IMG/VR virus record: IMGVR_UViG_3300027779_001649
Span: 24,824-88,823 of that record
Source of the DNA: a virus
DNA: 64,000 nucleotides
Strand: one strand, 5' to 3'
Shown: one piece after another, positions 1 to 62,766 of the stretch
Layout: each line of letters begins with the position of its first letter
Numbering within the stretch: position 1 is the first letter of the stretch
Translations under genes and position numbers: made by a program
The notes under the pieces: generated by a model
Database searches by the model: none
Told to the model about the DNA's origin: nothing
What the model saw: the letters and a program-made list of their open reading frames with translations, nothing else

Positions 1-7
1 CAGACAT
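1..7 (-). CDS. gp22: Start of probable prohead scaffold gp22 (runs off the window edge)
   Basis: ATG at 7 with AGGAG RBS and TATAAATA at 47-54; position directly after gp21 matches T4 order; only 2 codons visible. Confidence 0.45.
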
Positions 8-46
8 AGGGGGATCTCCTTTTTTATTCTAACTTCCTTATTTGTT

Positions 47-54
47 TATTTATA
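47..54 (-). promoter_or_regulatory. T4-type late promoter TATAAATA
   Basis: Exact consensus, intergenic after gp21. Confidence 0.75.
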
Positions 55-56
55 AA

Positions 57-713
57 TTACAACATTTTGAGGAATTTGGCGAACTCCAAAGCTTCGTTAT
101 TCGCCTCTTTATGACGCTTTTTAACGTCAATTCGTTTTTTCATATCCGCAAGTTGAGCTTCTACGATATTTCCATGATCCCAGACCCACTCTTTTCCCTC
201 CATAATACCTTCTACAAAGGCATTAGGAGCAGATGGATCTGCAACTATGTCAGCTGCTGTTGCGAGATAGAAATCATCTCTTACATAATTCGCACCGTTT
301 TTTGATTCTAAACTACCCATTCCTCTTGAAGAAACACCTAGTTTTGCACCCTCGTCCATTAAACTTTTAACTATCTTACCCATAGGTGTGTCCATTATCT
401 TAGCTTCACCAACAAAATTCTTACCATTAGGGGTTAAACTTGTAATCATGTGGGAAACTCTCTCCAGATTGACCGTTGGGCCGTCTGGATGTCCAAGTTC
501 ACCAAATGCACGTTTCTCTTTAATAAAATTCTTATTATACTTATCAACCTCAGTTTCAAGTATTTCCATAGGATATACACGACCATTACGGTTCTTAATG
601 TCCGCTTGCATGAAAATACCTTTAATCTTATAACTTTTCTTTCCGTTTTCCTTTTCTTCTACTAAATATTCGCAGCTTTCTACGGATTCGGATATTAATT
701 TTAGTGTTTGCAT
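57..713 (-). CDS. gp21: Prohead core protease
   Basis: Motifs IKGIFMQADIKNRNGRVYP, GELGHP, LGVSSRGMGSL, ADIVADPSAPNAFV. Confidence 0.97.
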   Translation of the reverse strand: MQTLKLISESVESCEYLVEEKENGKKSYKIKGIFMQADIKNRNGRVYPMEILETEVDKYNKNFIKEKRAFGELGHPDGPTVNLERVSHMITSLTPNGKNFVGEAKIMDTPMGKIVKSLMDEGAKLGVSSRGMGSLESKNGANYVRDDFYLATAADIVADPSAPNAFVEGIMEGKEWVWDHGNIVEAQLADMKKRIDVKKRHKEANNEALEFAKFLKML

Positions 714-717
714 GACT

Positions 718-1380
718 TTAATCCCATATTTCGTACTTAATTGGTTGTTTCCTCTTAGAGTTAAAGATGAAATCCCTTAAATGGTGTTTTTTACGATTAA
801 CACCCTCTTGGTTGTACCCTATACCCATTAACAATAACGGTTTTTCCTCTAAGTTTGCAATTTGTTTAATTGCTTGTGCATCAAAACATTGACAACACCC
901 TGTTCGGTATCCCAATAAAGAGGCAGTTAAGTTTAAATAACCAGTTGCAATACCTACTGCGACCTGTCTATCTCTCTCTAACTCTTTTAATTTCTTTTCA
1001 TCCCACTTACCTGTCTTAATATAACTTAGTGTAGCGGCATTTCTGTGCAAATCATCTGTTAAATCATTAGTAAAATCATAATTTTCAAAAATTACCAAGA
1101 GGTTTGCGAGTGTTTGAGGATTTGTTTCGTATCCTACAGGGTCACCTTTCTTTCTCTTAGTACTAAATCCTTCTGTGTGAGTATGAATTTCTTCAATAAC
1201 ATCACGGTCTTGTATAAAATGTACCTTATAAAACGCAATATTTTGTTTACTAGGACAGTTTGTTACCGAATGTAGTAGAGTTTTTACATCATCCTTCGGT
1301 ATTTCTTTAGTCAAATCCCAATTTCGTTGGGTATGTTGACTTTTAATTACTGCCTTTTCTATTTCAGTGTGCGTATACAT
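718..1380 (-). CDS. Nitroreductase-family flavoprotein
   Basis: HTQRNWD, CPSKQN, VGIATGYLNLTASLLGYRTGCCQCF and LLMGIGY fit the nitroreductase fold. Confidence 0.75.
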   Translation of the reverse strand: MYTHTEIEKAVIKSQHTQRNWDLTKEIPKDDVKTLLHSVTNCPSKQNIAFYKVHFIQDRDVIEEIHTHTEGFSTKRKKGDPVGYETNPQTLANLLVIFENYDFTNDLTDDLHRNAATLSYIKTGKWDEKKLKELERDRQVAVGIATGYLNLTASLLGYRTGCCQCFDAQAIKQIANLEEKPLLLMGIGYNQEGVNRKKHHLRDFIFNSKRKQPIKYEIWD

Positions 1381-1382
1381 TA

Positions 1383-1390
1383 TATTTAGT
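1383..1390 (-). promoter_or_regulatory. Late promoter variant ACTAAATA
   Basis: Same variant occurs upstream of gp20 and at 63076; only 2 nt from the annotated ATG. Confidence 0.45.
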
Positions 1391-2458
1391 CTATCCTATA
1401 CTTCTAATATCTTCTACTACATGGCGCATATCACCATCTATTGTTGCTTCATACTGTATTGGAGCAGACTGTTTTAATCTCTTTGTATCTTCTTCTGAGA
1501 TATCTACAATAGTACATCCATTAGCTACCGCATCGTCTTCATATTTCTTACAATCTTCCAGTGACCATTTTCGTTCTATCTTTGCAACCTTCTTAGCTGC
1601 AATAGTAAATGCTTCTTGTTGTTCAGAAGTCAAACTGTCAAATAGTGGTTGTCCTATCAAGATGGTAGTAAGAAACATACTATGATTAGATTTAAGTATA
1701 TTCTTACCAGAGAATCTAAGATACGTTGTTTCTACTGCACCTCCATTAGAAGCTGATTCTTTAATTTCCTGAATTTTTTGATTCATTCGTGGTTTTGCTA
1801 CAGCTCCAACATCACTAAATAATCTATCGGTATTAGGAGTTGTAACTAAATCTAATCCTTTAAGGTCATCCAAAGATGTTATTGGATGGTCAGACCCGAT
1901 AATACGGTATCCACCACTATAGGTAAATCCTAATCCCCTAACTCCACTGGTATCCCGACCATCTTTCTTATGGGTTGTAGAAGCCCATTCTCCCAGATGT
2001 AAGGTATCCAATAATTTCTGTCCTATAGAACCATCTAATGATTTTGTTACATGGTCATGGTCTTTAAATAAGAAGGGCAAATCTAAAAGAGAAAATCGTC
2101 TGTCAAGATGTCTACCAATAACAGTAACTTGAGTTTGACTCATATGAAATTTTTGTTCTCTAAGTCCTTGCCAAAATGCCGACCATTTCTTTCTGACATC
2201 CTTCCATTCAGAAGGAATAAACAACTTCTTTCTACCTTGGGGCATTTCCCAAGTTTCAAGAGATGTCTCTGCTGGTTTTAATCCTAATTCGGGAATATCA
2301 CCATATTTCTGGATATACTGTCCCATCATTAAAACCTCAACCTCAAACTGCCCAGGAAGTAACTTATCTAATTCCTTGGCAAATGCTTTTGCAGTTCGTA
2401 CAAAGAGGTATGCCGGTTGGTGGGCAATTAACCATCTTAAAACAACAGGATTACTCAT
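1391..2458 (-). CDS. DctP-like TRAP substrate-binding protein, no signal peptide
   Basis: LLDLPFLFKDHDHV, LGFTYSGGYRII, ITSLDDLKGL, NHSMFLT and FDSLTSEQQEAF match DctP; no hydrophobic N-terminus. Confidence 0.8.
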   Translation of the reverse strand: MSNPVVLRWLIAHQPAYLFVRTAKAFAKELDKLLPGQFEVEVLMMGQYIQKYGDIPELGLKPAETSLETWEMPQGRKKLFIPSEWKDVRKKWSAFWQGLREQKFHMSQTQVTVIGRHLDRRFSLLDLPFLFKDHDHVTKSLDGSIGQKLLDTLHLGEWASTTHKKDGRDTSGVRGLGFTYSGGYRIIGSDHPITSLDDLKGLDLVTTPNTDRLFSDVGAVAKPRMNQKIQEIKESASNGGAVETTYLRFSGKNILKSNHSMFLTTILIGQPLFDSLTSEQQEAFTIAAKKVAKIERKWSLEDCKKYEDDAVANGCTIVDISEEDTKRLKQSAPIQYEATIDGDMRHVVEDIRSIG

Positions 2459-2467
2459 TCTAACATC

Positions 2468-2848
2468 CTAAGTTATATTATCCCATCCAGATACTTTTTT
2501 CATACGTAACCAGACTGTTCCTACAGATGCAGAACCATTTGTCAGTTGTACATCTCCTGTGACACCACTTCCTCCATTATTGGGAATAGACGGCATACCA
2601 TCTCCGAAACCTACTTTACCACTTCCATTTAAGGACAGTGCAGCAACATTTGTTGTTGCGTCCCATTCTATATCTGTTGTTGATGAAACTGACCATGCAA
2701 TACCAGTAATAGTAGTACGTGGATCGGTTGCGGCACCAGCTGCATCCGAAGCATCAAAAACACTAGCAGAACTGTTAGTTCCACTAGTAGTAATTTTTAA
2801 AAAGTATTCAAAATCGCTATCCACGATCTCTTGTAATACTACGGCCAT
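2468..2848 (-). CDS. Small head-module virion protein (beta-rich)
   Basis: Between gp20 and gp21; RBS AGGAG; G/S/T-rich. Confidence 0.65.
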   Translation of the reverse strand: MAVVLQEIVDSDFEYFLKITTSGTNSSASVFDASDAAGAATDPRTTITGIAWSVSSTTDIEWDATTNVAALSLNGSGKVGFGDGMPSIPNNGGSGVTGDVQLTNGSASVGTVWLRMKKVSGWDNIT

Positions 2849-2858
2849 TGTTTAACTC

Positions 2859-3107
2859 CTATATTGATAACATCTCTTTCTCAAAATAACCCAGAAGTTT
2901 CTTCTCAGGAACCTTGTGTTTTTTAGATACTTCTTTTATTGTTTTTTCAAAACTATTTAGGAAATCTGTAGGTTTAGATTCCATCTTTTTAAAGATATCA
3001 TCAACGGCGTTCCGCATCTTAGGAGATAATCGCTTATACTCCTTAGATTTACGATGTTCGTCCTTCTCTACAACTGAATTTTCATATAATTCTAAAAAAT
3101 CAATCAT
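2859..3107 (-). CDS. Small basic helical protein of the head module (prohead core-associated, gp67/68 region)
   Basis: Overlap-coupled to neighbours; synteny. Confidence 0.6.
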   Translation of the reverse strand: MIDFLELYENSVVEKDEHRKSKEYKRLSPKMRNAVDDIFKKMESKPTDFLNSFEKTIKEVSKKHKVPEKKLLGYFEKEMLSI

Positions 3108-3292
3108 TCCTGTTCTTTCTCTGTATCAGGAGCATCCCTCATATCCTGTGCTTGTTGAACAAAGGTTTTTGCGACATCTCCTCTTTTAAGTTCTAAAGTA
3201 GCACCTACTTTTGTTACTATAGCTGTTGTAAATGCATCTTTAGCACCTATATTATCTCCATCAGAAACTTTATCTACAAATTCTCTACTCAT
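3104..3292 (-). CDS. Probable gp67-like prohead core protein (start MSREFVD at 3292)
   Basis: Upstream part of the track ORF overlaps the portal; short helical ORF directly after gp20 as in T4-like phages. Confidence 0.6.
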   Translation of the reverse strand: MSREFVDKVSDGDNIGAKDAFTTAIVTKVGATLELKRGDVAKTFVQQAQDMRDAPDTEKEQE

Positions 3293-4949
3293 TGTCATCT
3301 TCCTTTTCATCATTATTCTTTTTCTTTGCGAATGGATTTCCTCCACCATTTGCTGGAGCAGCTGGTTCGGGTTCTTCATAATCCGGCATATCAGGTGGTT
3401 TGATAACTTTTCCATCACCATCCTGTGGATAACGAGTAACACCATCACCACCGTCTGGCATGTCAATTCCACCATCTTCAACATCCATATCAGCTTCTTT
3501 CTTGATTTGGTCTTGCATCTTAGAAACATCACCATCATTCATACGTAATACTTTCTCCCAAACAAATTGTTTACTGAAGAATGTACCCATATATGATTGT
3601 ATAACGTCCATAGTTTCCAATCTTTCCTTTAGAAGTTCTGCTTCTTTTAACTCTGTAAAGTGACCATCCATTAAGAAATCATACTGTAGATGTTCTTTAA
3701 TACTAGTCCAATCCTCGTTTGCAATGATACCCTTCAACAATAACTGGGTCATAAGAATATCAGTGAATAGAGGTACGAATTTCTTACGTATTCTCTGCAC
3801 AAACTTAGTGAATTTTAGTTCATCTCTGGTAATTTCAGTAGATCGTCCAAGGTTAAATCCCGATTCAGATTCTAATCTGGATATAGGTACATTCAAGGAA
3901 CGGTATAGTTTCCTTTGAAAATACATAATATCATCTATTTCACCTAAATTCTGTCCACCAGGCAGAGTAGTTATCTCAGTTCCTCTACCACCTTCTCTTC
4001 GTGGTAACCAGAAATCTTCAAGCATTGACATATGATTTCTGTCATCTCGTATTTCACCAGTTGTTGCATCATACACCAACTTATTACGATATCGGTTCAT
4101 AACATCTTTTAGATACTGTTCTGCTTTAGCTTTTGGTAGATTACCAACGTCAATGTAGAAGATACGTCTTTCTGGAGCTCGGGAGATACGATAGATAACT
4201 AACGCATCTTCAATCATACGTAACTGATTGACAGATTTTATAGCTTTATGTAAATATGAACGAACTGCGCCATTATTCCCATCAATCACACCAGATGGAA
4301 CATAGGTAATAGAATCCTTTGCAATTTTAATACCCTCTGAGGTAGGTGAACCAGATTGTATTGAAAGTCCCTTTTCATTGTAGATATAGTATTCAGTAAT
4401 CTTTCGTACCATATCAACACCAGTTTTAGCATCAACTTTCTTATCTAACTCTCTAACTTTTCTAATTTTCATAGAATCTATCCAACGTAATTCGGTAATA
4501 CCCTTACGTGGATCATTAATGTCTATAACTTTGTGATAGTAGACCCTACCATCTACATACCATCTACGGAACACATCATGGCCTCTAGTATCAAAATCTA
4601 AAAGTCTTAATACCTCACCAAATTCGTGTCTAATTTTTCTCTTAATTTTCTCAGGATACGGTAATCCATCTAAAACTATGGATACAGCTTGATCGTTTTC
4701 ATTTGCAACGATAGATTCATTTACTATATCTTCAATTGCAGCATCACACTCAGGTTGTCCTGCAATATCCCTGTACCGTTTAATAAGGTCAATATCAGAC
4801 CGCTCACGCCCATCAGTGTCTAGGACTTGACCCCAGAAACCACCTCCGGCAACATCAATAGTGCCATCTTGAGGATCAGGAGCAGTAAACGTCTGCTCCT
4901 TCTCCTGTTCTTTTACCTTAGATAAACGGAACCCAAAAAGTTCTGCCAT
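3285..4949 (-). CDS. gp20: Portal vertex protein
   Basis: MAELFGF, WYVDGR, YRISRAPERRIFYIDVGNLPK, EDFWLPRREGGRGTEITTLPGGQNLG. Confidence 0.98.
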   Translation of the reverse strand: MAELFGFRLSKVKEQEKEQTFTAPDPQDGTIDVAGGGFWGQVLDTDGRERSDIDLIKRYRDIAGQPECDAAIEDIVNESIVANENDQAVSIVLDGLPYPEKIKRKIRHEFGEVLRLLDFDTRGHDVFRRWYVDGRVYYHKVIDINDPRKGITELRWIDSMKIRKVRELDKKVDAKTGVDMVRKITEYYIYNEKGLSIQSGSPTSEGIKIAKDSITYVPSGVIDGNNGAVRSYLHKAIKSVNQLRMIEDALVIYRISRAPERRIFYIDVGNLPKAKAEQYLKDVMNRYRNKLVYDATTGEIRDDRNHMSMLEDFWLPRREGGRGTEITTLPGGQNLGEIDDIMYFQRKLYRSLNVPISRLESESGFNLGRSTEITRDELKFTKFVQRIRKKFVPLFTDILMTQLLLKGIIANEDWTSIKEHLQYDFLMDGHFTELKEAELLKERLETMDVIQSYMGTFFSKQFVWEKVLRMNDGDVSKMQDQIKKEADMDVEDGGIDMPDGGDGVTRYPQDGDGKVIKPPDMPDYEEPEPAAPANGGGNPFAKKKNNDEKEDDNE

Positions 4950-4975
4950 TATATATTACTCCTACTGTCTATATC

Positions 4976-4983
4976 TATTTAGT
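4976..4983 (-). promoter_or_regulatory. Late promoter variant ACTAAATA upstream of gp20
   Basis: Intergenic, upstream of AGGAG RBS. Confidence 0.65.
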
Positions 4984-4987
4984 AGGT

Positions 4988-5521
4988 CTAGAAGTTCACA
5001 CCAGAAGCTTCAAAGTGTTGATATCTCCAACTTACATCAAATGTTTCTATCGTATCCGCTGTAGCGTTACTCAATTCAATAACAGTAATTGCCGTTGGCC
5101 AGGCACTCTTGAAAATATAACTTTTCAAAACAGTGTCATCCCTGTCCAATTGTTCTACTGTTAGATCTGATTGATAATCAGCAGGAGATATTACACCAGT
5201 ATTGTTAGCAAGATCATTAATACCGTTAGACCACCGTTCCATAGCGTTACGGATCATAAAGTCCGTATCGTTGTAGAAAGTAGTAGTCCAAGTTTCATCA
5301 AATGTCCTGTCTCCAGCAATATAGATATTCCGTCCACGAAACGGAATAGGAATCTCTGCTAAAGATTGTGCAGGAAGATTAGATGTCGTACATAGAAAAG
5401 AAGTTCTACGGACATCTAGTCCTATTGCAATACCAGGCGGTGGTGTAACTGTTACTCTAAACTGATTAGCACGAGCACCACCACCAATTAGATTTGCTTT
5501 AAAGTCATCTATATTAGCCAT
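4988..5521 (-). CDS. gp19: Tail tube protein
   Basis: GGARANQFRV, PFRGRNIYIAGDRTF, WTTTFYND, VEQLDR. Confidence 0.96.
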   Translation of the reverse strand: MANIDDFKANLIGGGARANQFRVTVTPPPGIAIGLDVRRTSFLCTTSNLPAQSLAEIPIPFRGRNIYIAGDRTFDETWTTTFYNDTDFMIRNAMERWSNGINDLANNTGVISPADYQSDLTVEQLDRDDTVLKSYIFKSAWPTAITVIELSNATADTIETFDVSWRYQHFEASGVNF

Positions 5522-7583: not shown

Positions 7584-7591
7584 TATTTATA
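7584..7591 (-). promoter_or_regulatory. Late promoter TATAAATA upstream of gp18
   Basis: Exact consensus, intergenic. Confidence 0.8.
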
Positions 7592-7966: not shown

Positions 7967-8902
7967 ATGAATATATTAAAAGGGCTTATCTTCGTCCTAG
8001 CACTAATGATTCCCAATACATTGTATGCCTTAGAACTTGGTACTACAAAAGGTACTGCAAATTACCAAACGGGTATCGCATTGTCAAAAGTAATCACACA
8101 ACATGGAGTAAAAATACACCCTGTACCACATAGAGGAACTAATATCTACACAGAACGAGTAAATGTTGGTAAATTAGATTTTGCTATTGCGGGTGCATAT
8201 CATCTATATTGGGCAAGGACAGGGACAGGCCCAGTTAAATATCCCCATAAAAATCTTCGTTTTGTAGCTAATCTACAAAACTTTAGAACCACATATGCAG
8301 TTAGAAATAATTCTAACATTAAGACTTATGAAGATTTAGAGGGTAAAAGAGTACCTTCGGGATTTGCAGGAGCACCATCCTTTCATTGGATGATGGAAGC
8401 AAATCTAGCAAACGGTGGGTTAACTTGGGACGATGTAACTCCTGTGCCTGTTACTTCATTACCAAAATGTTGGGCTGGTCTTCAAATTGGTACTATTGAT
8501 GTTTGCACCTTTGCAATAGGTTCTGGTTCTGCGAAGAAATTTAATATCCTAACTCCAGGCGGTCTGAGAGGTTTAAGTTCAAATATCGGTCAAAAAGAAC
8601 AGGATATGTTCAGAAATTGGAAGGGAGTAAGTATTGTTACTCAAAATCCTTCTGATAACTTATCTCTAATAAGGGGTAAAACTAGAGTCACGCAGTTTTC
8701 ATATCAGCTTTTCACAAATAAAGATGTGCCTGTTGATGTTGTAAAGGATGTTGTTCTTGCACTATACGAGGGAGGAGAAGACTTTCAAAAGTCCTCTGGT
8801 TTCACTAAGTCCTTTAAAAAGGAAAACATGAACAAGAATGTTACAATTCCTATGCACTCAGGTGCAAAGAAGGCTTATAATGAACTTGGACTTTCTGAAT
8901 AA
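7967..8902 (+). CDS. TAXI-family TRAP substrate-binding protein
   Basis: Signal peptide; LGTTKGTANYQTG, GTNIY, DFAI, IKTYEDLEGKRV, IPMHSGAKKAYNELG (TAXI PxHxGA motif). Confidence 0.88.
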   Translation: MNILKGLIFVLALMIPNTLYALELGTTKGTANYQTGIALSKVITQHGVKIHPVPHRGTNIYTERVNVGKLDFAIAGAYHLYWARTGTGPVKYPHKNLRFVANLQNFRTTYAVRNNSNIKTYEDLEGKRVPSGFAGAPSFHWMMEANLANGGLTWDDVTPVPVTSLPKCWAGLQIGTIDVCTFAIGSGSAKKFNILTPGGLRGLSSNIGQKEQDMFRNWKGVSIVTQNPSDNLSLIRGKTRVTQFSYQLFTNKDVPVDVVKDVVLALYEGGEDFQKSSGFTKSFKKENMNKNVTIPMHSGAKKAYNELGLSE

Positions 8903-10217
8903 GCTACTAACTGTACTACTTCTTATTGGGGTATCTAACATAGATTTCTATGTTGGGTATCCCTTTATGGATGAACAGTTATACTTTTTATTACTTCTTG
9001 TTAGTTTAAGCTGTATATTTAATAATATACTACTAATTCTAGGAGGAATTATATTATTCTTTGCATATCCCTACTTATCTGAATATGCTCTTTCAGAAGT
9101 AACGACCTTACGATTACTCGCAATACCTTTACTATCACTTATTTTCTGGAGTTTGTATAGAACCAGTGGTAGGGGGTTTGCAATTATTTTTGGTCTATTC
9201 TTATTATACCCATTTTTAGTATATAATCCAATAAAGGCACTTGACATTTTATCATTCATCGTAATTGATAATACTGCTATGTTAGGTATCGCAATGTATA
9301 TAATATGTGGTATAGTGTTTATGTTTGTTATATTTGGACAATTAATGGTGCATATTGGTCTGATTGATAAGTTAATGTATTATATTACCAGACACATAAA
9401 ATCCCCTGCTAGGGTTGCAATTATGTCCTCTGCCGTGTTTGGTAGTGTATCTGGTGCAGCAGTATCTAATGTTATGAGTACAGGACAACTTACAATCCCT
9501 CTCATGATAAAATGCGGTTATTCTAAAGTTAAAGCAGCTGCATATGAAGCAGTCGCATCTACTGGAGGACAACTCATGCCTCCAATTATGGGTGCAGCTG
9601 CATTTCTTATGGCAGAAACTCTATCTATATCATATTGGGAGGTTGTTAGGGTTGCGATAATACCTTCACTCTTATTCTATTCTATATTACTTTTAACAGT
9701 ACCCAAGGAAGAAAAAAAACACAGCCCGAGGATTATAAAAAAACGACTTCGGTATCCCCCCCTTGGTCAATTGGTGCTTGACACGGGTAATATAATGTCT
9801 GGACTAATAATTTTAGGCGCAGCTATAGGTTTAATCATAGGAATAATGGATCAAACTGGACTATCTTTCCATATTTCAACTTATATTATAGAATTATCGG
9901 GGGGAAACTCCTTTTTATTACTTTTACTCACTGCAGCTCTCTGTATAGTCCTTGGAATGGGTATGCCAACGGTATCAACCTATCTTATTGTTAGTGTTGT
10001 CGCAGCCCCTGCATTAGTAGAATCAGGATTTACTGAAATATACGCACATCTTTTTGTATTATATTATGGGTGTTTATCTTTAATAACTCCACCAGTTGCA
10101 ATATGTTCTTTTGCAGCTGCAAAGTTAAGTGGTGCAAATCCTATGGCAGTCTCATTAGAATCTGTATATATTGGGTGGCCGTTATTTCTAGTTCCATTCC
10201 TCTTTATAATGATGTAA
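8880..10217 (+). CDS. TAXI TRAP fused permease (4TM/12TM type), shortened to ~445 aa
   Basis: SSAVFGSVSGAAVSNV, TIPLMIKCGY, EAVASTGGQLMPPIMGAAAFLMAE, LGMGMPT, ITPPVAI. Confidence 0.9.
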   Translation: MNLDFLNKLLTVLLLIGVSNIDFYVGYPFMDEQLYFLLLLVSLSCIFNNILLILGGIILFFAYPYLSEYALSEVTTLRLLAIPLLSLIFWSLYRTSGRGFAIIFGLFLLYPFLVYNPIKALDILSFIVIDNTAMLGIAMYIICGIVFMFVIFGQLMVHIGLIDKLMYYITRHIKSPARVAIMSSAVFGSVSGAAVSNVMSTGQLTIPLMIKCGYSKVKAAAYEAVASTGGQLMPPIMGAAAFLMAETLSISYWEVVRVAIIPSLLFYSILLLTVPKEEKKHSPRIIKKRLRYPPLGQLVLDTGNIMSGLIILGAAIGLIIGIMDQTGLSFHISTYIIELSGGNSFLLLLLTAALCIVLGMGMPTVSTYLIVSVVAAPALVESGFTEIYAHLFVLYYGCLSLITPPVAICSFAAAKLSGANPMAVSLESVYIGWPLFLVPFLFIMM

Positions 10218-11381
10218 GAAACCTCTCCAATCGTATTGTTCTATATTGTCTTTGGTTAGTATAGAACCATCATCCAGTATACCCCAAATTCTGTATGAAG
10301 ATTTATCTACAACTCTATTTACAAGGTGTTGTCCTCTCAGAAGACTTATCACTTTACCATGACCATATGCATATTCTTTATCCTTAGTGAATTTGTATAT
10401 ATGGTCACGTAAAGGCATTTTGTAAGTTAAATAATGTTCGTGTTTCATATCATTAACGCAAATGTAAGTATCTGGGTTGTTTTCATCCATATTCCCAAAT
10501 ATAGTTCCACATGCTTCACGCCATCCTTTTCTATGTTGATTGACCGCCCACTTCTCCATAGGGGGTTGGACATAAATCGGCAAATGATTACTCATATCCA
10601 TTTTATCTCCCTCCCATTCGTAAATATATCTCAGACTTCCTACACACCACTTCTGTTTTCTTTTCGCTTCCCAAGTTTCATAGATTTGTTGGGGCGAAGT
10701 TACATATATGTTTGCAGATTTTCCATTACCGTTAGAACCAAACACTTCATCTGCTGTACCACAGGGACATAGTATATGTTTATCTGGTGATGCTTCTTTA
10801 AATACATCGTGTGTTGTGTTGATTGTATGGTCTAAATGTTTTACTACTTTATCGTAATAGTCCTGATATTCCGTACTATGTCCAATAATAACATGAAGTT
10901 GTTCGGGACATACCTCATTTAACGCAATAAGAGCTGCCGTAGAATCTATACCACCAGACCAAAAGAAATCTATAGTCTTTCCTGTTGATGCAAGAATTTC
11001 AGCAGATGCTATCAAAACATCTGTTATATCTAAATTTTCTACTTCGGGGTAATGTTTGTATTCTAACCACGGCATGTTCAGAGATTTAACAGAACTATTA
11101 AATGTATATTGTTGTTCAGTATCTCTGTTTAGAAGTACACCACCATCAAATCCCATTTCATGTAAGGTAACTCGCTCTTTTCTCCAATCCTGCCATAAAT
11201 GTTTTATTTCGGGATGTCCTTTGAAAAAAAGGTTATGGGATTTATTGAAGTTATAATAGGCATTAGGGCCTGTCCAACTTTCTTTGATGTTGTCTTTAGA
11301 TACTCCAAAATGAGAATAACTTTTTTCTCTCATATATTTAATAAATGGCCGTCCATAGAAAACCAACCGATACTTATCCAT
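10188..11381 (-). CDS. Asparagine-synthetase-like PP-loop adenylating enzyme (paralog 1)
   Basis: WSGGIDST, CGTADEVFGS, YKMPLRDHIY. Confidence 0.75.
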   Translation of the reverse strand: MDKYRLVFYGRPFIKYMREKSYSHFGVSKDNIKESWTGPNAYYNFNKSHNLFFKGHPEIKHLWQDWRKERVTLHEMGFDGGVLLNRDTEQQYTFNSSVKSLNMPWLEYKHYPEVENLDITDVLIASAEILASTGKTIDFFWSGGIDSTAALIALNEVCPEQLHVIIGHSTEYQDYYDKVVKHLDHTINTTHDVFKEASPDKHILCPCGTADEVFGSNGNGKSANIYVTSPQQIYETWEAKRKQKWCVGSLRYIYEWEGDKMDMSNHLPIYVQPPMEKWAVNQHRKGWREACGTIFGNMDENNPDTYICVNDMKHEHYLTYKMPLRDHIYKFTKDKEYAYGHGKVISLLRGQHLVNRVVDKSSYRIWGILDDGSILTKDNIEQYDWRGFLHHYKEEWN

Positions 11382-17945: not shown

Positions 17946-17953
17946 TATTTATA
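17946..17953 (-). promoter_or_regulatory. Late promoter TATAAATA upstream of gp13
   Basis: Exact consensus. Confidence 0.75.
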
Positions 17954-18452
17954 AAAGAAGAGGTCTGGTTACTACGCAATTATCATCATCAAAGTAACTC
18001 TGTTTGACGAAATTTACCCCAGTATATGCGTATAAAGCACTCAATTTTGGATATGACCATATAATTTCACATCCTCTTTTTCTTCCATAATCCATAGTCT
18101 CATTTAATAACCAAGTTGATAGACCTAATCCTCTATGTTTAGGATGTACCCATAACCCCCTAGACCTATAAATTTTAAGTCCACATTGAGATCCTGAGTT
18201 AACACCCACTATTTCTTCATATGATTCTCCATAATGACTAACGTATTTTATTGCTATAAAGACAGAAGTTTTGAGATACCTTTTAATATCTAACTGTCTT
18301 ATAACTTTATTTCCCTCCAAAGCCCATGTACTATGGGGATAAATGGTTTTCTTATTTTTCCATAAGTCCGACTTCCATACCTTATATATCTCCTCAAACG
18401 ACACGGGTTCTAGATAGTACAGCTTATTTTCCCCAGTAATAATCTGCGGCAT
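17949..18452 (-). CDS. GNAT-family acetyltransferase
   Basis: RSRGLWVHPKHRGLGLSTWLL acetyl-CoA motif A; WSYPK. Confidence 0.8.
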   Translation of the reverse strand: MPQIITGENKLYYLEPVSFEEIYKVWKSDLWKNKKTIYPHSTWALEGNKVIRQLDIKRYLKTSVFIAIKYVSHYGESYEEIVGVNSGSQCGLKIYRSRGLWVHPKHRGLGLSTWLLNETMDYGRKRGCEIIWSYPKLSALYAYTGVNFVKQSYFDDDNCVVTRPLLL

Positions 18453-19500
18453 AATTATAAGGAGTAAATGCTTTGTTCTTATAAGGAACTACTTTACTTG
18501 CCCATTTCTTTTGACTCGCAAGAACTTTCCGAAACCATTTGTTCTTTTTGGATTCTTCTTTAAACATAATATCTATGGTTTTCAATTCTGCAACAAGAAT
18601 ATCAGGTGGTGTCTTCATGATACGCACCCCATGCTTTTCAACCATTCTTGATAACGCTCTTGCGTTTTCGGATTGTATCCAAGTGAGCCACCACAGATAG
18701 GACTCATATGCAGCAGAACGCACTGAGGCACGTTGAGAGTCAGATAGACTCCTCCAGATACCACCATTAATAAGAAGGTCACCAGTATTACTATGTTCAT
18801 GTAAACTATTTAGATAGTAATATTTCCAGATAGTTGGAAACCCTAGTCTTTCATCTTCTAATCCACCGACAAATTCTGCACAGTTGATTACACCTTTCTG
18901 TCCAGCAGCAAGAATCTCTCCACCAGGCATACCAATAGTCTGCATACCCATACGAGCATATAGTTCTACATTAATGCCTGTCTGTCTGCACTTAAAGTTT
19001 TTAAGGTCTGCAAGGTTTTCAATTGGACGATGGAACCACCCCAAAGGTTGATTCTGAGTAGGCATAACAGGGAAAGGGACTACATCCAGTTTCAACACTT
19101 CTTGATAAAATGTACGATACATCTCTAGTCCACCACCGTGAAACATCCATCCAAGAAAATCAATACCATCCATTCCATATGGGCCTCCTAAAGGAGAGTT
19201 AAATAGTCCTAGAGTTTTATCCTTACCCACCCAATAATAACTCTGTGTCCATGCACCTCCCACAGCACCAGATGCTGTTGCATCAAGAACTTGAAAGGCT
19301 GGGACTAAAGCACCAGCAGGTTTAATCTCCATCAGAACTTTACCATCAGTTAGAACTTTAACTTTATCTGCAATGAACTTTGCTTGTTCATTGAAAGTAC
19401 TAACAGCAGGATAAGAACTTGCGATTAAGATTTTTGTGCCCGCAGATGCAGGGGAAAAGGTTAATAGGATGGCAGCCGCAGCCATATAAATATATTTCAT
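18424..19500 (-). CDS. dctP: TRAP substrate-binding protein, TakP-like (2-oxo/monocarboxylate subgroup)
   Basis: Signal peptide; PAGALVPAFQVLDA, YYWVGK, QPLGWF, DLKNFKCRQTG (conserved Arg), MPGGEI, CAEFVG. Confidence 0.9.
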   Translation of the reverse strand: MKYIYMAAAAILLTFSPASAGTKILIASSYPAVSTFNEQAKFIADKVKVLTDGKVLMEIKPAGALVPAFQVLDATASGAVGGAWTQSYYWVGKDKTLGLFNSPLGGPYGMDGIDFLGWMFHGGGLEMYRTFYQEVLKLDVVPFPVMPTQNQPLGWFHRPIENLADLKNFKCRQTGINVELYARMGMQTIGMPGGEILAAGQKGVINCAEFVGGLEDERLGFPTIWKYYYLNSLHEHSNTGDLLINGGIWRSLSDSQRASVRSAAYESYLWWLTWIQSENARALSRMVEKHGVRIMKTPPDILVAELKTIDIMFKEESKKNKWFRKVLASQKKWASKVVPYKNKAFTPYNYAADYYWGK

Positions 19501-19526: not shown

Positions 19527-20771
19527 CTAGTTATTTAGGTACGTTGGTAACCACGTTGCTATACTAGGAATCATAAAAATAATTATCACAGCAAGTACCT
19601 GTATCCACATAAACGGCATCATACCTTTAAATATCATACCCAAATCCCATTCTGGAACGACCTGTTTTATATAATATGATGTTAACGCAACGGGTGGTGT
19701 TAAGTAGGCAGTCTGTATAACTATCCCTAAACAAACTGCAAACCATAACATATCCACACCAGAACTAATAAGAACTGGTAAGAATATGGGAACAAATACC
19801 AACACTACCACAGGCCATTCAAACGGCCATCCCAATAGATGACATAGTACTAGTATACAACCGACTAATGCCCAAGGGGGTATTGGTAAAGAATTTAAGG
19901 TGTCCACTATCACGTTATCGCCGCCTAGTGCAGTAAAGACCGCACCAAATATTGTGGAGGAGATTGCGAGTAGCATAACCACAGCAGAAGTGTCTGTAGT
20001 TTTTAATAGAGTTTCTTTCAGTTCTAACTTACCGTTTAACAATGCAAGAACTAATGCACCGAAAGCACCAAACGCACCAGCTTCTGTAGACGTTGCAAGT
20101 CCAAATAACATAGAACCTAACACAGTAGATATAAGAACTGCTAGAGGGATAACATCTATTAAAACTCTACGATAGTCTGGTGTCTCTTGTTGTTTGGGTA
20201 CAGAATGAAATAGACAGTATATCGCATACATTGATGCAATCATTAATCCTGGCACTAATGCTCCAGCATAAAGATCAATAATACTAAGGTTCATAGTAGG
20301 AGCCATAACTATAAGAGGAACGGATGGTGGTATCATAATAAGAGAACCACCACCAGCAATAACTCCTGCCGTCAATTTCGGATTGTAACCTAGTTTCATC
20401 ATATGAGGAGCTGCCATAATACCAAGTAATGTTACAGACGCACCAACTACTCCTGTCGCAAGACTTATCAATACTGCAATAACAATAACAACTAAGTTAA
20501 GATTACCAACTATAGTTTTCATACTATAGAATAGTTTCTCAACTAATCCTGCCTTTTCGCAAATATAACCCATGAATATAAACATAGGTATAGCCATGAA
20601 TACTTCGTTTGATAATGCGCCGACTAAGTTATAGTACGCAAGATCAAATACATTCTCCCCCATAGAGAGAAATCCAAAACCTAATGCTAGAAATATAAGA
20701 GTGAAAGCTACAGGTAAACCCAAAAATATACCTATAATCATAGTCACTAACATCACAATCGCAAGCAACAC
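19527..20771 (-). CDS. dctM: TRAP large permease
   Basis: GLPVAF, AIPMFIFMG, IPPSVPLI, ATSTEAGAFGA, YLTPPVA. Confidence 0.92.
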   Translation of the reverse strand: MLLAIVMLVTMIIGIFLGLPVAFTLIFLALGFGFLSMGENVFDLAYYNLVGALSNEVFMAIPMFIFMGYICEKAGLVEKLFYSMKTIVGNLNLVVIVIAVLISLATGVVGASVTLLGIMAAPHMMKLGYNPKLTAGVIAGGGSLIMIPPSVPLIVMAPTMNLSIIDLYAGALVPGLMIASMYAIYCLFHSVPKQQETPDYRRVLIDVIPLAVLISTVLGSMLFGLATSTEAGAFGAFGALVLALLNGKLELKETLLKTTDTSAVVMLLAISSTIFGAVFTALGGDNVIVDTLNSLPIPPWALVGCILVLCHLLGWPFEWPVVVLVFVPIFLPVLISSGVDMLWFAVCLGIVIQTAYLTPPVALTSYYIKQVVPEWDLGMIFKGMMPFMWIQVLAVIIIFMIPSIATWLPTYLNN

Positions 20772-21196
20772 TTCCTCACTTCCTGTACACCATATATCAA
20801 TAACAAAATTAATCCTAAAGTAATAGAAAATTTATATGGCCATATTATTAATTGCGTCATTGTATTGGAACTCTTTTCCCATATAGAAATGCTTCTAAAA
20901 CTATCCATTGCAGAATAGTACGTGAGAATACCAATAGAGGGAAAGAATAGACAGTAACCTAGAAGATCTATGATTGATTTTGTTCTATCTGAAAAGTTCT
21001 TCCAGTAGATATCTGTTCGTATGTGAGTTCCTTTGGAAAGACTATAACTAGCACCTAATATAATTAATGCGCCATATAATTGTGGTACGATATCAACAGC
21101 AAAGTCAAATCTTAAATCAAAAAAAAATCTACCTAGAACATTGGTAACAGTTAGTAAAACGATTCCCAAAACAAACCATGAATATATTTTAATCAT
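20753..21196 (-). CDS. dctQ: TRAP small permease
   Basis: Four hydrophobic segments, GRFFF, LGASYSL, HIRTDI. Confidence 0.88.
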   Translation of the reverse strand: MIKIYSWFVLGIVLLTVTNVLGRFFFDLRFDFAVDIVPQLYGALIILGASYSLSKGTHIRTDIYWKNFSDRTKSIIDLLGYCLFFPSIGILTYYSAMDSFRSISIWEKSSNTMTQLIIWPYKFSITLGLILLLIYGVQEVRKCCLRL

Positions 21197-21877
21197 CTAC
21201 TTCTTAATTTGCATATGAGCATTAAAACTCATACTCCTTCTTTCACCTTTAACATGAAATGGATAGACAAAGTGTTTTAAATAGGACGGAAAAACTAATA
21301 ACTTTCCAACCTCTGGTTTAAATTTTACACCATCACTTCGCATATCACAAGCCTCTCCATACATAAATTCAATCAAACCATTCGCAGGGTAATGGTCTTC
21401 ACCATCCTCTTGATATTCTCCTTCCATCTCATCAGGTAATTTTAAATAGATGACGGCTGAAAAGTCACCACTATGTTTATGCCAAGGATTATACTCCCCA
21501 GCATATTGACTGACTATCCAGCTCTGTGTTAAATGGATGTTATCTAATTGGGGAACAGTACTATGTCCTGACATCTTGTACCAATTATATGCTCTATTCT
21601 TGTCTCTTATATAATTTAGGTAGTCCAGACATCCCCTCTTCATAGTATCAGAGAGATACTTCTTATCATCATCAGAGGAAATTGGTATCTGAATTTCCTT
21701 ATGAACCTTGCCTACCAGATTATCAGACCAATCCCATTGAGCACTTTGTTGCTCACTACTTAGTATCTTGTCTCCAACCTTATTTACAATTTTAACGAAC
21801 GTCTCTGGTACAGAGGTTTCTAAAATCGTAGGACTGAATACTTCATGCCAAATCTTATCCCCTCTTATCTTAGTCAT
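21197..21877 (-). CDS. 2OG-Fe(II) oxygenase (HxH...H...R type)
   Basis: YNPWHKHSG, FPSYLKHFVYPF, ERRSMSFN. Confidence 0.85.
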   Translation of the reverse strand: MTKIRGDKIWHEVFSPTILETSVPETFVKIVNKVGDKILSSEQQSAQWDWSDNLVGKVHKEIQIPISSDDDKKYLSDTMKRGCLDYLNYIRDKNRAYNWYKMSGHSTVPQLDNIHLTQSWIVSQYAGEYNPWHKHSGDFSAVIYLKLPDEMEGEYQEDGEDHYPANGLIEFMYGEACDMRSDGVKFKPEVGKLLVFPSYLKHFVYPFHVKGERRSMSFNAHMQIKK

Positions 21878-25414: not shown

Positions 25415-25892
25415 ACCAAGATGTATATCAGGACAATGTTTAGGGCATTCTAATAAGGGGTACTTAGTTCCTTGTTGTTTTGTAGATGCATTTTATGATA
25501 ATATTGAGAAAAAGAAACTCATACATCATGATAACGATAAACTTAATGCATTGTGGGATACATCCTTAAAAATTTCCAATAATAACCATATACATGATAT
25601 AACAATGAGTGATATATGGATGGATTTTTATACCATGTTACAGGATAAAGATCAAGAGAAACCTTTAATGTGTATTAAGTGTTGTGACCCTGTATATACT
25701 AAGGAGTTAAAAGAAGGTGAAATAGCTCCAACACGATTTAGCCAGAAGACTAATCCAGTACATGCTGTCAGCAGAAGAAGTACAGAAGTAACTCATGTGA
25801 TAAAGATTAATAGTATGTCAGTAAATGATGAACTTTTGGTGATGACCTCATCTGGCCGACCTAAGCCAAAAGATTATAAACAAAGAGAATGA
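25392..25892 (+). CDS. Stand-alone SPASM/twitch-like domain protein
   Basis: KPRCI...GYLVPCCF...PLMCIKCC. Confidence 0.75.
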   Translation: MTHSDQFKPRCISGQCLGHSNKGYLVPCCFVDAFYDNIEKKKLIHHDNDKLNALWDTSLKISNNNHIHDITMSDIWMDFYTMLQDKDQEKPLMCIKCCDPVYTKELKEGEIAPTRFSQKTNPVHAVSRRSTEVTHVIKINSMSVNDELLVMTSSGRPKPKDYKQRE

Positions 25893-27031
25893 CGGTCAAG
25901 ATAATCCATGATGTTATCCTTATGAACTATCGTTCCATCATTAACAATCGCCTTCACCCTAAAATCATTAGGTAATGGTGAGTAGAACTCTTTCTGAGCT
26001 CTTCCTTCCATCAATCTAGTTTTTCCTATACCATATGCAAATTCCCTATCATATAATGCAATGAAGTCTCTCAACATCATCTTTGCTTTCTGGAATCTTT
26101 CTGGGTCACTCCTAGGACTGTGATTATACCAAAACATATTTCTATTATAATGTTGATTAATTGACCACTTGTGTATATCTGGATCTCTAAAGAACGGCTG
26201 ATAATTTTCTAGGTCAATCTCATCTGCTTTTATATTTTGTAAGAAACGGAATGACTGTGTGATGAATGTATACCGTGTTATTGTCCACCACATTTCATAA
26301 TTCCATTCCTCATTTTCTGGGTCATCTAGATTTGGTTTCTTTCTTGGGTCTATTGCATACCCCAATGGTTTGTTGGGATCACGAACTGCGTCATCTACTT
26401 GTGGGGGGTAACCGACACTACCAAACAATCTATCAGCTTCGCACCCACTAGTATAAACATTAATATCTGGATTCGCCATACCATAAATGTTTCCTGTCAT
26501 ATCTAAACGATGCGGGCCTTTAATAACATAATCTTCCCATAACTTGGGATAATGTTTAATAACTGCGTCACCTCCAGCAATGATATGCAGCTGTTCTCTA
26601 GGACAAACTTCTTTCAGTGCGTATAACATAGCAGTACTATCTACACCACCAGAATAGAATACCTCAATATGTTTACCCATATCTCTTAATTCTTCTGCAC
26701 GTTTAATCATAAGGTCATTAAAGTCTGCGTTCTCTACCTCTGGATAATATTTGTAATCCAAAACAGGATAATACTTTTCCATATTATCCATATTAAACAC
26801 ATATTCATCTACACCCAAAGAATCACTTATGTATGAACTCTTAGGACGATGGCAATATTGAGTCATAAATTCTTCACGTTGTCTCGCTTCCTTATACTCT
26901 TCAAAGAACTCTTTCTCAAATTCAGGCCATCCGTACTGTCCCTTTCTAGGCGCACCTTTAACAACCTTATCCATAGCCCTTCTGAAGTCATCAGAAATAT
27001 ATACATACTTAATTGTGCTTTTCATAGTCAC
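25874..27031 (-). CDS. Asparagine-synthetase-like PP-loop enzyme (paralog 2)
   Basis: YSGGVDST, SGCEADRLFGS, AKMMLRDFI. Confidence 0.75.
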   Translation of the reverse strand: MTMKSTIKYVYISDDFRRAMDKVVKGAPRKGQYGWPEFEKEFFEEYKEARQREEFMTQYCHRPKSSYISDSLGVDEYVFNMDNMEKYYPVLDYKYYPEVENADFNDLMIKRAEELRDMGKHIEVFYSGGVDSTAMLYALKEVCPREQLHIIAGGDAVIKHYPKLWEDYVIKGPHRLDMTGNIYGMANPDINVYTSGCEADRLFGSVGYPPQVDDAVRDPNKPLGYAIDPRKKPNLDDPENEEWNYEMWWTITRYTFITQSFRFLQNIKADEIDLENYQPFFRDPDIHKWSINQHYNRNMFWYNHSPRSDPERFQKAKMMLRDFIALYDREFAYGIGKTRLMEGRAQKEFYSPLPNDFRVKAIVNDGTIVHKDNIMDYLDRHSLCL

Positions 27032-61158: not shown

Positions 61159-61487
61159 TATTCTACCTCCTCTATTTTATCTTCTTTACAATAAGGGTGG
61201 TCTAACCAATTCCATGCGATAGTCTCACAATTCAGTGATAGCAAGAATTCTCTTTCCTCTTCTGGTGTCTGACACACTCTTTGACCGTTAATAACTCTAG
61301 ACCATCTGCAATCCTTTCCAGACATACCTGATGCGAGATGTTCAGTACTTGTCTTGCCCGTCTCCGCCGACATGACGATATCAGTACCCGTATGTAGTAT
61401 TGATAACCAAGGAGGAACAATACCGCAACCACTAATCATCAAACATGTGCTTACTAATATTATCAAACGTCTTTTTATTAAAGACAT
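61158..61487 (-). CDS. Putative lipoprotein
   Basis: Basic N-terminus, hydrophobic stretch, lipobox ISGC; TGKTSTEH..S..SGKDC. Confidence 0.65.
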   Translation of the reverse strand: MSLIKRRLIILVSTCLMISGCGIVPPWLSILHTGTDIVMSAETGKTSTEHLASGMSGKDCRWSRVINGQRVCQTPEEEREFLLSLNCETIAWNWLDHPYCKEDKIEEVE

Positions 61488-62766
61488 CCCAAACTCCTAT
61501 CTTGTTGTGATCCAATATCTCATTTCTCTTCAAATACTGACCATCGTCCATGATGAGTTTATTCCTAATCTGTCCAAGACCGACAGGGACAGTTTTAGGA
61601 AATGACGTTTCTTTCGTCTTATTGTGTAGATAATTAGAATCTTTATTGAACTCATAGATGAATTCCTTTGCGGGCCATTTATAAGTCTTCCATGTACCCT
61701 TGTGCTTCAAATCGTGATTAAGAATAGACCACCTCTGAAAATCATCGCAATTGAAGAAACTTTCCATATTTCTCCAATCGGTAGGTGGTTCAAGATAACC
61801 GAATAGTCTTCGGTCAATCCATCCCCATTTAATACTGAACGCCAACCACCATGTGAAATCAAATGTAGTCTTCACCTCAAATGGACATAGCTTATTGAAC
61901 TCTTCGCACCATTCTATGAACTTACCATAGAGTGGTCTGTTCAGTGGTCTGTCATCTCTTATCTCATATATGTTACCTGAGTCTTCCCAATTGAATAGTT
62001 CCTTCCAAGGTTCGTTGATATTCTCAATATGGTTCTCTACCACGAATGTCCCAAACATAGGGTCACCACATTCACCAGTGATATTGAGTGTTTGGTCTTG
62101 AAATCTACCTACGTCCCACATATTATCTTTGGTTGACCACTCAAATGCCGTATTCATCTTCTTGAGTAGTTCATAGTATGTGGGGTTCTCTTCTATACTC
62201 TTCTCTGAAAGTAGTACTCTTAGTTTTGGGATACCAGTATATTCATCGTCTGGTTGATTCTGTATCAGTGCAGTAAGGGCTGTCGTTGAATCAATTCCAC
62301 CTGACCACCAGACTCGTACATTATCACTCTTCTTCCATATCTCTTGAGCCCTCTTATGACATACCTCTGGGAAGGTCATGTTCCAATTGTCTGTTGATGG
62401 GATTGCATCGTGAAGTGTGTTGAATATGTTCCAAGTGTCTGTTCGGTCAAATGGTAATGGACAACTGACGAGTCTACCAGCTGCATATAGGAAATTGTCT
62501 CCCAATTCTCCTACCCTTCTCCAATCCCCCGCATAGGGGTTGCGACTTATACCGTTACGGCGTGCTTTCTTATATGGATCCTTAGCTGTGACTATGATTT
62601 GTCCCTTAGTCCAATGGGGATCTCCTGTCACCACATTGATGGGTTTACCCAGAGTCTTCCAATCTCGTTCATACTCTTTCCAATCGGGATGCATTTCAAT
62701 TCCCAATGGATTCCATTCAATCATTTCTGGATAGAAGGTTGTGGAGAAAAATACCACTTTACTCAT
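61432..62766 (-). CDS. Asparagine-synthetase-like PP-loop enzyme (paralog 3)
   Basis: WSGGIDST, TGECGDPMFG, FQRWS, YKWPAKEFIY. Confidence 0.78.
   Translation of the reverse strand: MSKVVFFSTTFYPEMIEWNPLGIEMHPDWKEYERDWKTLGKPINVVTGDPHWTKGQIIVTAKDPYKKARRNGISRNPYAGDWRRVGELGDNFLYAAGRLVSCPLPFDRTDTWNIFNTLHDAIPSTDNWNMTFPEVCHKRAQEIWKKSDNVRVWWSGGIDSTTALTALIQNQPDDEYTGIPKLRVLLSEKSIEENPTYYELLKKMNTAFEWSTKDNMWDVGRFQDQTLNITGECGDPMFGTFVVENHIENINEPWKELFNWEDSGNIYEIRDDRPLNRPLYGKFIEWCEEFNKLCPFEVKTTFDFTWWLAFSIKWGWIDRRLFGYLEPPTDWRNMESFFNCDDFQRWSILNHDLKHKGTWKTYKWPAKEFIYEFNKDSNYLHNKTKETSFPKTVPVGLGQIRNKLIMDDGQYLKRNEILDHNKIGVWDVFNKKTFDNISKHMFDD

Follow-up and report, generated by a model that had tools for sequence, protein, structure and literature searches.

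A DctP-fold protein without a leader or the carboxylate-binding arginine in a T4-like myovirus

Start, fold, and pocket of the protein

The DNA examined here is a 64,000-nucleotide (nt) stretch, called the window below, that covers positions 24,824 to 88,823 of the IMG/VR virus record IMGVR_UViG_3300027779_001649. The source record is 88,823 bp long and approximately 49% complete by CheckV. It comes from a T4-like myovirus and encodes a large terminase, a prohead protease, a gp20 portal, and the tube and sheath of the tail. A gene for a 355-amino-acid (aa) protein with the fold of DctP, the receptor of TRAP transporters, lies between the genes for portal and prohead protease. The gene and the parts of it that matter for its reading are as follows.

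1391 to 2458 (stop codon included), minus strand: leaderless DctP-fold gene, 355 aa (open reading frame, ORF, call; PF03480; NF037995; AF2; Foldseek)
2459 to 2470, minus strand: TAG of an upstream 126-aa ORF plus a 9-nt spacer (sequence and in-frame translation)
2174 to 2311, minus strand: insertion 1 (approximately aa 50 to 95), variable in length and common to the viral Arg-less clade (alignment)
1943 to 1996, minus strand: insertion 2 (approximately aa 155 to 172), in the closest relatives only (P0002 and P0010; alignment)
1844 to 1846, minus strand: codon of Val205, at the site of the DctP carboxylate-binding Arg (4p9k and 4pdh alignments)

The N terminus of the protein is MSNPVVLRWLIAHQP, which puts the start at the first beta strand. 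Reading in frame 5' of the ATG gave ...GWDNIT*DVR-MSNPVVLRW, where the asterisk is a TAG three codons before the start. This in-frame TAG, together with the 9-nt gap, makes an N-terminal signal peptide impossible for the protein. An AGGA lies across the junction of stop and spacer, approximately 8 nt 5' of the ATG. In the 90%-identical relative at locus L003, a stop also precedes the start, by 7 codons. Neither a signal peptide nor a lipobox was found for the 355-aa protein, judging from its own upstream stop and strand-1 start and from a hydrophobicity heuristic applied to its relatives.

The upstream 126-aa ORF (2468 to 2848) is rich in Ser, Thr, and Gly and has no family match. It shares its frame with the DctP-like gene, whose ATG follows the TAG by three codons, and we considered a read-through fusion of the two. 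The frame differs in L003, so we regard the shared frame as a coincidence. Decay into a pseudogene was ruled out by the intact ORF, the high-confidence structure model, and a dN/dS ratio of 0.30. That ratio was measured against L003 (a single pair), with two neighboring genes at 0.10 to 0.11, and from this one pair the gene appears to be under purifying selection. Three marine metatranscriptome libraries, each from a different study, contain short exact contigs of window positions 1 to 5200 (Logan). One contig (X15 record 3, 2411 to 2667) spans the start of the DctP-like gene and another (X21 record 21, 1405 to 1560) lies inside it, both with 0 differences. Metatranscriptome libraries may hold carried-over DNA and Logan contigs cannot show transcription, so these matches are a hint at most.

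The protein matched PF03480 at 2.4e-24 and 86.6 bits (cutoff, 23.4), with aa 97 to 333 on profile positions 48 to 276, and NF037995 (TRAP_S1) at 65.3 bits (cutoff, 50). The stricter dctP model TIGR00787 gave 56.2 bits, below its cutoff of 175.05. Its one match in PHROGs was phrog_31178, annotated as "unknown function." The AF2 model, built on a 46-sequence alignment, had a pLDDT of 92.6 and a pTM of 0.91. Every PDB match listed by Foldseek for this model was a TRAP binding protein, the best being 4p47 (E value, 3.2e-21), and no enzyme was among the matches listed. The TM scores (normalized to target length) were 0.75 to 0.80, at 14 to 21% identity to the solved structures. As modeled, the 355-aa protein is a complete, intact DctP/TRAP binding-protein fold.

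The two-lobe fold is common over its whole length to the DctP TRAP receptors (PF03480; 4p47, 4p9k/4pak, 4nhb, SiaP 2cex/3b50, and IseP 8t9t). Like these solved proteins, the window protein keeps the first-strand "xRWLIAH," the DLPFLF motif, the Arg of "GGYR," and the His of "NHS." Unlike them, it has no signal peptide, Val in place of the Arg, Thr in place of the Asn of "QEN," two insertions, and no adjacent dctQM. In phmmer alignments, "dlkgldlvttpn" falls on "dlkglkmrtmen" of both 4p9k and 4pdh, which places Val205 opposite the carboxylate-binding Arg. That Arg is presumably SiaP R147, a residue named in PDB entry titles. These alignments also pair Thr244 with the Asn of "GQEN," which we take to be N187. 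Judging from these alignments, the canonical Arg/Asn carboxylate clamp is gone from the protein.

The segment from Tyr48 to Ser107 is 59 aa long; its median length in Arg-retaining relatives is 27, and the canonical DctP that the same phage encodes has 21. The segment from 150 to 176 has 26 aa, against 12 in the comparison set. Insertion 1 is modeled with confidence (block-mean pLDDT, 84 to 97), and insertion 2 is predicted to be disordered, with pLDDT below 50 at residues 159 to 165. Across the family, W9, H13, Q108, D126, H134, H136, Y180, R185, E243, T245, R248, H259, and S260 are near-invariant.

With signal-peptide export excluded and the clamp lost, this is not an ordinary TRAP receptor. 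Because export and the Arg clamp are two defining features of such a receptor and both fail, we file the protein as a member of the DctP-fold family and not as a TRAP receptor. An earlier note on this DNA, made without database searches, had described an orphan DctP that begins at the mature fold, has no carboxylate-binding Arg, and carries two insertions. The start, the family identity, the missing Arg, and both insertions are borne out by the results above. An upstream in-frame signal peptide, which the note had named as the finding that would overturn its view, was absent from the in-frame translation.

Distribution and phylogeny of the relatives

Of 2264 candidates from a word-indexed protein search, 574 were relatives. 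Identity to the window protein was 75 to 90% for the closest and 45 to 59% for a large set of 340- to 345-aa proteins. All 12 relatives that we inspected start at the same strand as the window protein. An exhaustive search of a 50%-identity representative library gave 759 matches at an E value of ≤0.001, 264 at ≤1e-10, and 40 at ≤1e-30. In IMG/VR, relatives were encoded by 401 of 422 candidate stretches. In GTDB (one genome per species), they were found in 63 of 75 stretches at 25 to 42% identity, mostly in metagenome-assembled genomes (MAGs) of Bdellovibrionota/Bacteriovoracaceae and Elusimicrobia, with a few in Myxococcota, Gammaproteobacteria, and others. From these sets, 80 viral loci (IMG/VR) and 61 cellular loci (GTDB) were retained. 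In the nearest ESM Atlas clusters, all members that have a taxon record are viral.

By tblastn, 50,697 GenBank phage records held no close homolog; four weak matches, at 24 to 26% identity, were to ordinary DctPs. A full-text literature search found no account of leaderless or phage-encoded DctP-like proteins, with part of that search made noisy by the collision of "DctP" with "dCTP."

ORF calling across all loci yielded 172 family members, and leaders were called by a simple hydrophobicity heuristic, not by SignalP. Among 92 full-length viral copies, 74 have fewer than 18 residues ahead of the first-strand Trp, and 16 are longer through an upstream alternative start without a hydrophobic stretch. 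The remaining 2 were called signal peptide-like, yet each has a Met inside the ORF where the start usually lies, so ORF overextension is probable. The 60 full-length cellular copies comprised 39 with signal peptide-like N termini, 15 that are leaderless, and 6 that are unclear.

For the alignment and tree, 12 matches shorter than 280 aa were dropped and duplicates were collapsed, which reduced 160 sequences to 135 rows. The Arg column is R in 60 of these. The tree was built with FastTree with SH-like supports and rooted on the phage's own canonical DctP, a very distant outgroup whose very long branch leaves the deep order uncertain. Exported and mostly Arg-bearing cellular proteins are basal; the Arg-bearing exported relatives come mainly from Bdellovibrionota and Elusimicrobia. 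The next clade (support, 99) has 34 rows, 18 viral and 16 cellular, that are leaderless and retain the Arg. The window protein sits in a clade of 52 rows (support, 95), of which 50 are viral and the two "cellular" ones are MAG contigs of 7 to 9 kb. By the heuristic, 51 of the 52 are leaderless; the first-strand motif was not found in the remaining row, which was left unscored. Neither Arg nor Lys occupies the clamp site in 48 of the 52.

The window protein has the strand-1 start, the family residues, and the place in the viral clade that define the leaderless clade. Because both losses are clade-wide, they are not defects of a single copy. From the tree, we read leader loss and Arg loss as old, selected states of the whole clade.

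Several phages have a leaderless DctP-like protein of the Arg-retaining type that is split into two adjacent ORFs of approximately 160 aa, one for the N-terminal and one for the C-terminal half. The split pairs are located as follows.

L023, 3653 to 4610: split DctP-like ORF pair
L055, 5982 to 6939: split DctP-like ORF pair
L020, 7328 to 8312: split DctP-like ORF pair
L064, 5925 to 7432: split DctP-like ORF pair

Gene neighborhoods in this phage and in relatives

The genes of the window that bear on the DctP-like gene are as follows.

57 to 713: prohead protease
718 to 1380, minus strand: nitroreductase-family gene, 10 nt downstream of the DctP-like gene (PF00881, 2.5e-13)
3285 to 4949: gp20 portal (Pfam, 1.9e-181)
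7584 to 7591, minus strand: TATAAATA motif upstream of the sheath gene (motif scan)
7967 to 10217: TAXI receptor with a signal-like N terminus, and a fused permease
10188 to 11381, 25874 to 27031, and 61432 to 62766: three PP-loop-type paralogs of approximately 390 to 440 aa without a Pfam match
18424 to 19500: canonical dctP, with signal peptide and Arg kept
19527 to 20771: dctM
20753 to 21196: dctQ

Two small ORFs lie upstream of the DctP-like gene and the nitroreductase lies downstream. The portal shares 66.9% identity with its counterpart in Methylophilales phage Melnitz and 64.6% with the one in Pelagibacter phage Mosig. Hosts of the OM43 and SAR11 types are infected by relatives of this phage. 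The corresponding gene order in Mosig is terminase, sheath, tube, portal, five small ORFs, protease, scaffold, and capsid. Since Mosig has small ORFs only between portal and protease, the DctP-like gene and the nitroreductase are, by this comparison, insertions, and we read them as cargo in a conserved structural block. The nitroreductase has a single homolog in the phage collection (27% identity), which is encoded by Mosig at another genome position. We considered the nitroreductase as an established, dedicated partner of the DctP-like protein; the pairing is confined to the window and L003, whose proteins are 90% identical, and we reject an established partnership and regard the nitroreductase as a possible partner at most.

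The sheath, tube, portal, small ORFs, DctP-like gene, nitroreductase, and protease are co-oriented. The nearest TATAAATA upstream of this block is the one at 7584 to 7591. We take it to be a T4-type late promoter motif, and late co-expression of the DctP-like gene with the block is probable.

A place between portal and prohead protease would suit a virion-associated binding protein, in the capsid or internal, which is assembled in the cytoplasm and hence needs no leader. The gene is co-oriented at this place in both the window and L003. However, its location is not conserved in relatives and the syntenic block of Mosig lacks it, which argues against a structural role. Cellular relatives exist as well, and no capsid-targeting or protease-site feature was noticed, with no formal search for one made. 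Thus, we regard a virion protein as highly improbable.

The phage also encodes import systems of its own. Its canonical DctP, of the TakP/ketoacid-binding type, matches the ketoacid-binding protein 7ug8 at 7.6e-41. It belongs to the same Pfam family and the same genome as the DctP-like protein; unlike the latter, it has a signal peptide, the Arg, and a place in a dctQ-dctM-dctP operon. This operon is flanked by a 2OG-Fe(II) oxygenase gene (21197 to 21877) and a GNAT gene (17949 to 18452). The dctQM genes stand approximately 17 kb from the DctP-like gene. The TAXI permease ORF has 459 aa, and the better of its two matching stretches covers positions 65 to 339 of the 615-position TIGR02123, so the permease may be truncated or atypical.

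In relatives, the location of the DctP-like gene is highly variable. It stands beside RNR, PP-loop, TctC-like, or DUF2061 genes, or alone. As judged from the flanks that were fetched, DctM or DctQ relatives were present at 9 of 80 viral loci, which represent approximately four lineages, and at 0 of 61 cellular loci. In one sister lineage (L008 to L016 and L062), the ortholog immediately precedes a row of genes made up of a cold-shock-like gene, dctQ, dctM, a canonical dctP that has a leader, and another leaderless copy.

This arrangement, and the presence of both dctQMP and a TAXI system in the phage, would fit a protein that still works with the TRAP membrane subunits, either as an acceptor or regulator on the cytoplasmic side of DctQM or after unconventional export. 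The low count of DctQ/M-bearing flanks speaks against such a role. Moreover, those operons already have a canonical DctP with a signal peptide, and the protein has no leader of any kind. We therefore consider an accessory of DctQM very unlikely.

These neighborhoods qualify several statements of the earlier note. The position inside the head module is correct as a position, from the portal to the protease. The absence of an adjacent permease is right for the immediate neighbors, which are the 126-aa ORF and the nitroreductase; dctQM and a TAXI permease are nonetheless present elsewhere in the window. "Orphan" thus describes the local setting only, given that the phage has its own dctQMP and that one sister lineage pairs the gene directly with dctQM. 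The note had held that routine pairing of homologs with dctQM would speak against it, and such pairing is not routine, the sister lineage excepted. It had asked for a phylogeny against bacterial DctP, and this put the window protein in the almost purely viral, leaderless clade described above. Finally, the note's transport protein repurposed as a cytoplasmic sensor or sponge or as a virion-associated protein stands in part. The absence of classical export and of the clamp is clade-wide; the sensor or sponge and the virion-associated protein are conjectures, and the head-module location is not conserved in relatives.

The commonest neighbors in other loci belong to two related families of 360 to 440 aa without a Pfam match. 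Three window paralogs align with these neighbors of leaderless DctP-like genes and have the SGGxDS motif in common with them. Across the 40 sequences, the GG and D of SGGxDS are invariant and both S residues are near-invariant. Against the PDB, the profile gave weak matches (E value, 0.003 to 1) to LarE, QueC, TtuA, and GMP synthase, and the sole row outside the PP-loop group was a hemagglutinin (E value, 0.17). These weak profile matches and the motif point to PP-loop-type ATP-utilizing enzymes. Of the 59 nonredundant viral loci, 22 have a PP-loop-type gene within 2 genes of the DctP-like gene, 16 have a gene there for a TctC-like protein with a signal peptide, and 13 have one for a DUF2061 membrane protein. 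Neither DUF2061 nor TctC, frequent neighbors in other phages, was found in the 88.8-kb record. A complex prediction for the DctP-like protein of L051 and its upstream PP-loop protein scored 0.00, and with no controls it counts neither for nor against binding.

Among the cellular relatives, the leaderless ones also adjoin the PP-loop family and genes for BKACE, a carrier protein with an AMP-binding enzyme, MBOAT, SDR, and desaturase-like proteins; the exported ones adjoin AMP-binding, MBOAT, and ABC-transporter genes. In Bdellovibrionota MAGs (L084, L087, L092, L088, and L137), relatives are clustered with a small carrier protein, an AMP-binding enzyme, and MBOAT, a layout that we take to resemble the Dlt system. 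The same clusters also contain an NMT1-type ABC transporter or BKACE, SDR, and desaturase-like genes, and no DctQ/M gene is in their flanks.

Enzymes have arisen from periplasmic-binding-protein folds, as in MqnA/MqnD, THI5, and cyclohexadienyl dehydratase. The protein could likewise be an enzyme and carry out one step in a phage tailoring network. Its conserved H134, H136, E243, R248, H259, and S260 form a set that is not common to ordinary DctPs, and its probable cytoplasmic setting beside PP-loop proteins, nitroreductase, BKACE, SDR, and desaturase-like proteins would suit such a step. Against this, the Foldseek matches listed were all binding proteins, and the TRAP/DctP fold has no known catalytic motif. 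Furthermore, in alignments to solved DctPs, H13, DLPFLF, and H259 look like general positions of the fold. We consider an enzyme unlikely.

The variability of the neighbors, and the fact that the gene stands alone in many phages, raises a different role. A nonexported, probably late-expressed, phage-specific binder could act as a cytoplasmic sponge for a host metabolite or signal, rewiring host regulation or blunting a defense signal. However, leaderless relatives lie in apparently metabolic clusters of Bdellovibrionota and other bacteria, which fit metabolism better than counterdefense. We also know of no sponge with a DctP fold. A sponge therefore seems quite unlikely to us.

Two phage systems serve for comparison. 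PstS encoded by phages is an exported protein. In cyanophages and pelagimyophages, PstS can substitute for the host PstS and raise phosphate uptake, according to the available excerpt of one report (PMC12379486). It is thus likewise a solute-binding protein carried by marine T4-like phages, with a transporter role in that excerpt (PMC12379486); the window protein differs in having no signal-peptide export and no matching role. The second comparison concerns CmoY of Synechococcus phage S-B43. In the available excerpt of its report, CmoY is an asparagine-synthetase-like, ATP-dependent amide ligase that puts glycine onto 5-carboxymethylcytosine in DNA (PMC12783734). It sets a precedent for late chemistry in marine T4-like phages, in which adenylate-forming amide ligases couple small amines to a DNA base that bears a carboxyl group (PMC12783734). 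By analogy, the PP-loop genes beside leaderless DctP-like genes could have a comparable ligase role. The 88.8-kb, approximately 49%-complete record had no match to CmoX (PF00145), CmoA (TIGR00740), or Asn_synthase (PF00733), and for this half-genome the link to CmoY is thus an analogy and not an assignment. The likeness concerns the neighbor genes only, as binding proteins go unmentioned in that excerpt (PMC12783734).

A proposed cytoplasmic ligand binder and its meaning

The explanation that we tentatively put first is a cytoplasmic ligand binder, probably made late, whose pocket has been rebuilt and whose role is tied to the import and PP-loop ligase genes of the phage. The viral clade would have lost the signal peptide and then the Arg/Asn carboxylate clamp, with other conserved polar residues kept and added. 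Its members would bind their ligand by another mode or bind another ligand. In this phage, the protein would be made late, inside the infected cell, as cargo in the structural block of a marine T4-like myovirus. It would capture, buffer, or hand over a metabolite in the cytoplasm and would have no role as a periplasmic transporter receptor. The metabolite may be a substrate of the phage TRAP/TAXI importers or of the phage PP-loop (adenylate-forming) enzymes. The fold, the missing leader, the changes in the pocket, the structure of the clade, and the gene neighborhoods are observed; the cytoplasmic location, the late expression, the ligand binding, and the link to ligases and importers are each things that we infer.

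Several observations weigh against this explanation. R185, R224, and R248 are still present in the protein, and for that reason the loss of the clamp Arg is no proof that acid binding is lost. The tree was built with FastTree only and depends on one very long outgroup branch (length, 3.0) for its root. TATAAATA occurs 12 times in the window, a count that is reached in 20 of 100 shuffles and is not above chance; late expression is therefore something that we infer and do not read from the motif. The association with PP-loop genes holds in approximately one-third of loci only. PP-loop frequency does drop from 12 of 115 at a gene offset of 1 to 1 of 85 at an offset of 6, but these offsets are rough, as the ORF list includes spurious ORFs. 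In the window itself, no PP-loop gene is adjacent; the shortest distance is 7.7 kb, a figure of little meaning when the 64 kb contain at least three copies. The nitroreductase pairing, for its part, is limited to two near-identical loci, the window and L003.

A bolder proposal is that the leaderless DctP-fold proteins are cytoplasmic carriers, invented by phages, of an amine or acid that feeds PP-loop ligases for hypermodification of phage DNA or protein. The substrate would come from phage TRAP/TTT/TAXI import or from the host pool, and the Arg-less clade would serve a noncarboxylate ligand. A transporter receptor would thus have been recruited as a metabolic channeling subunit. Taken as a whole, this chain of steps is doubtful, and we offer it as a conjecture.

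Solute-binding proteins are textbook extracytoplasmic receptors. A large clade that abandoned export would show a binding fold reused inside the cell. The DctP-like gene lies among phage genes that look like import plus tailoring, namely, TRAP/TAXI importers, PP-loop ligases, and 2OG oxygenases. The protein is absent from the cultured phages among the 50,697 records, and this explains why experiment has so far missed it. Its ligand would be a direct handle on the late products of abundant, uncultured marine and freshwater T4-like phages.

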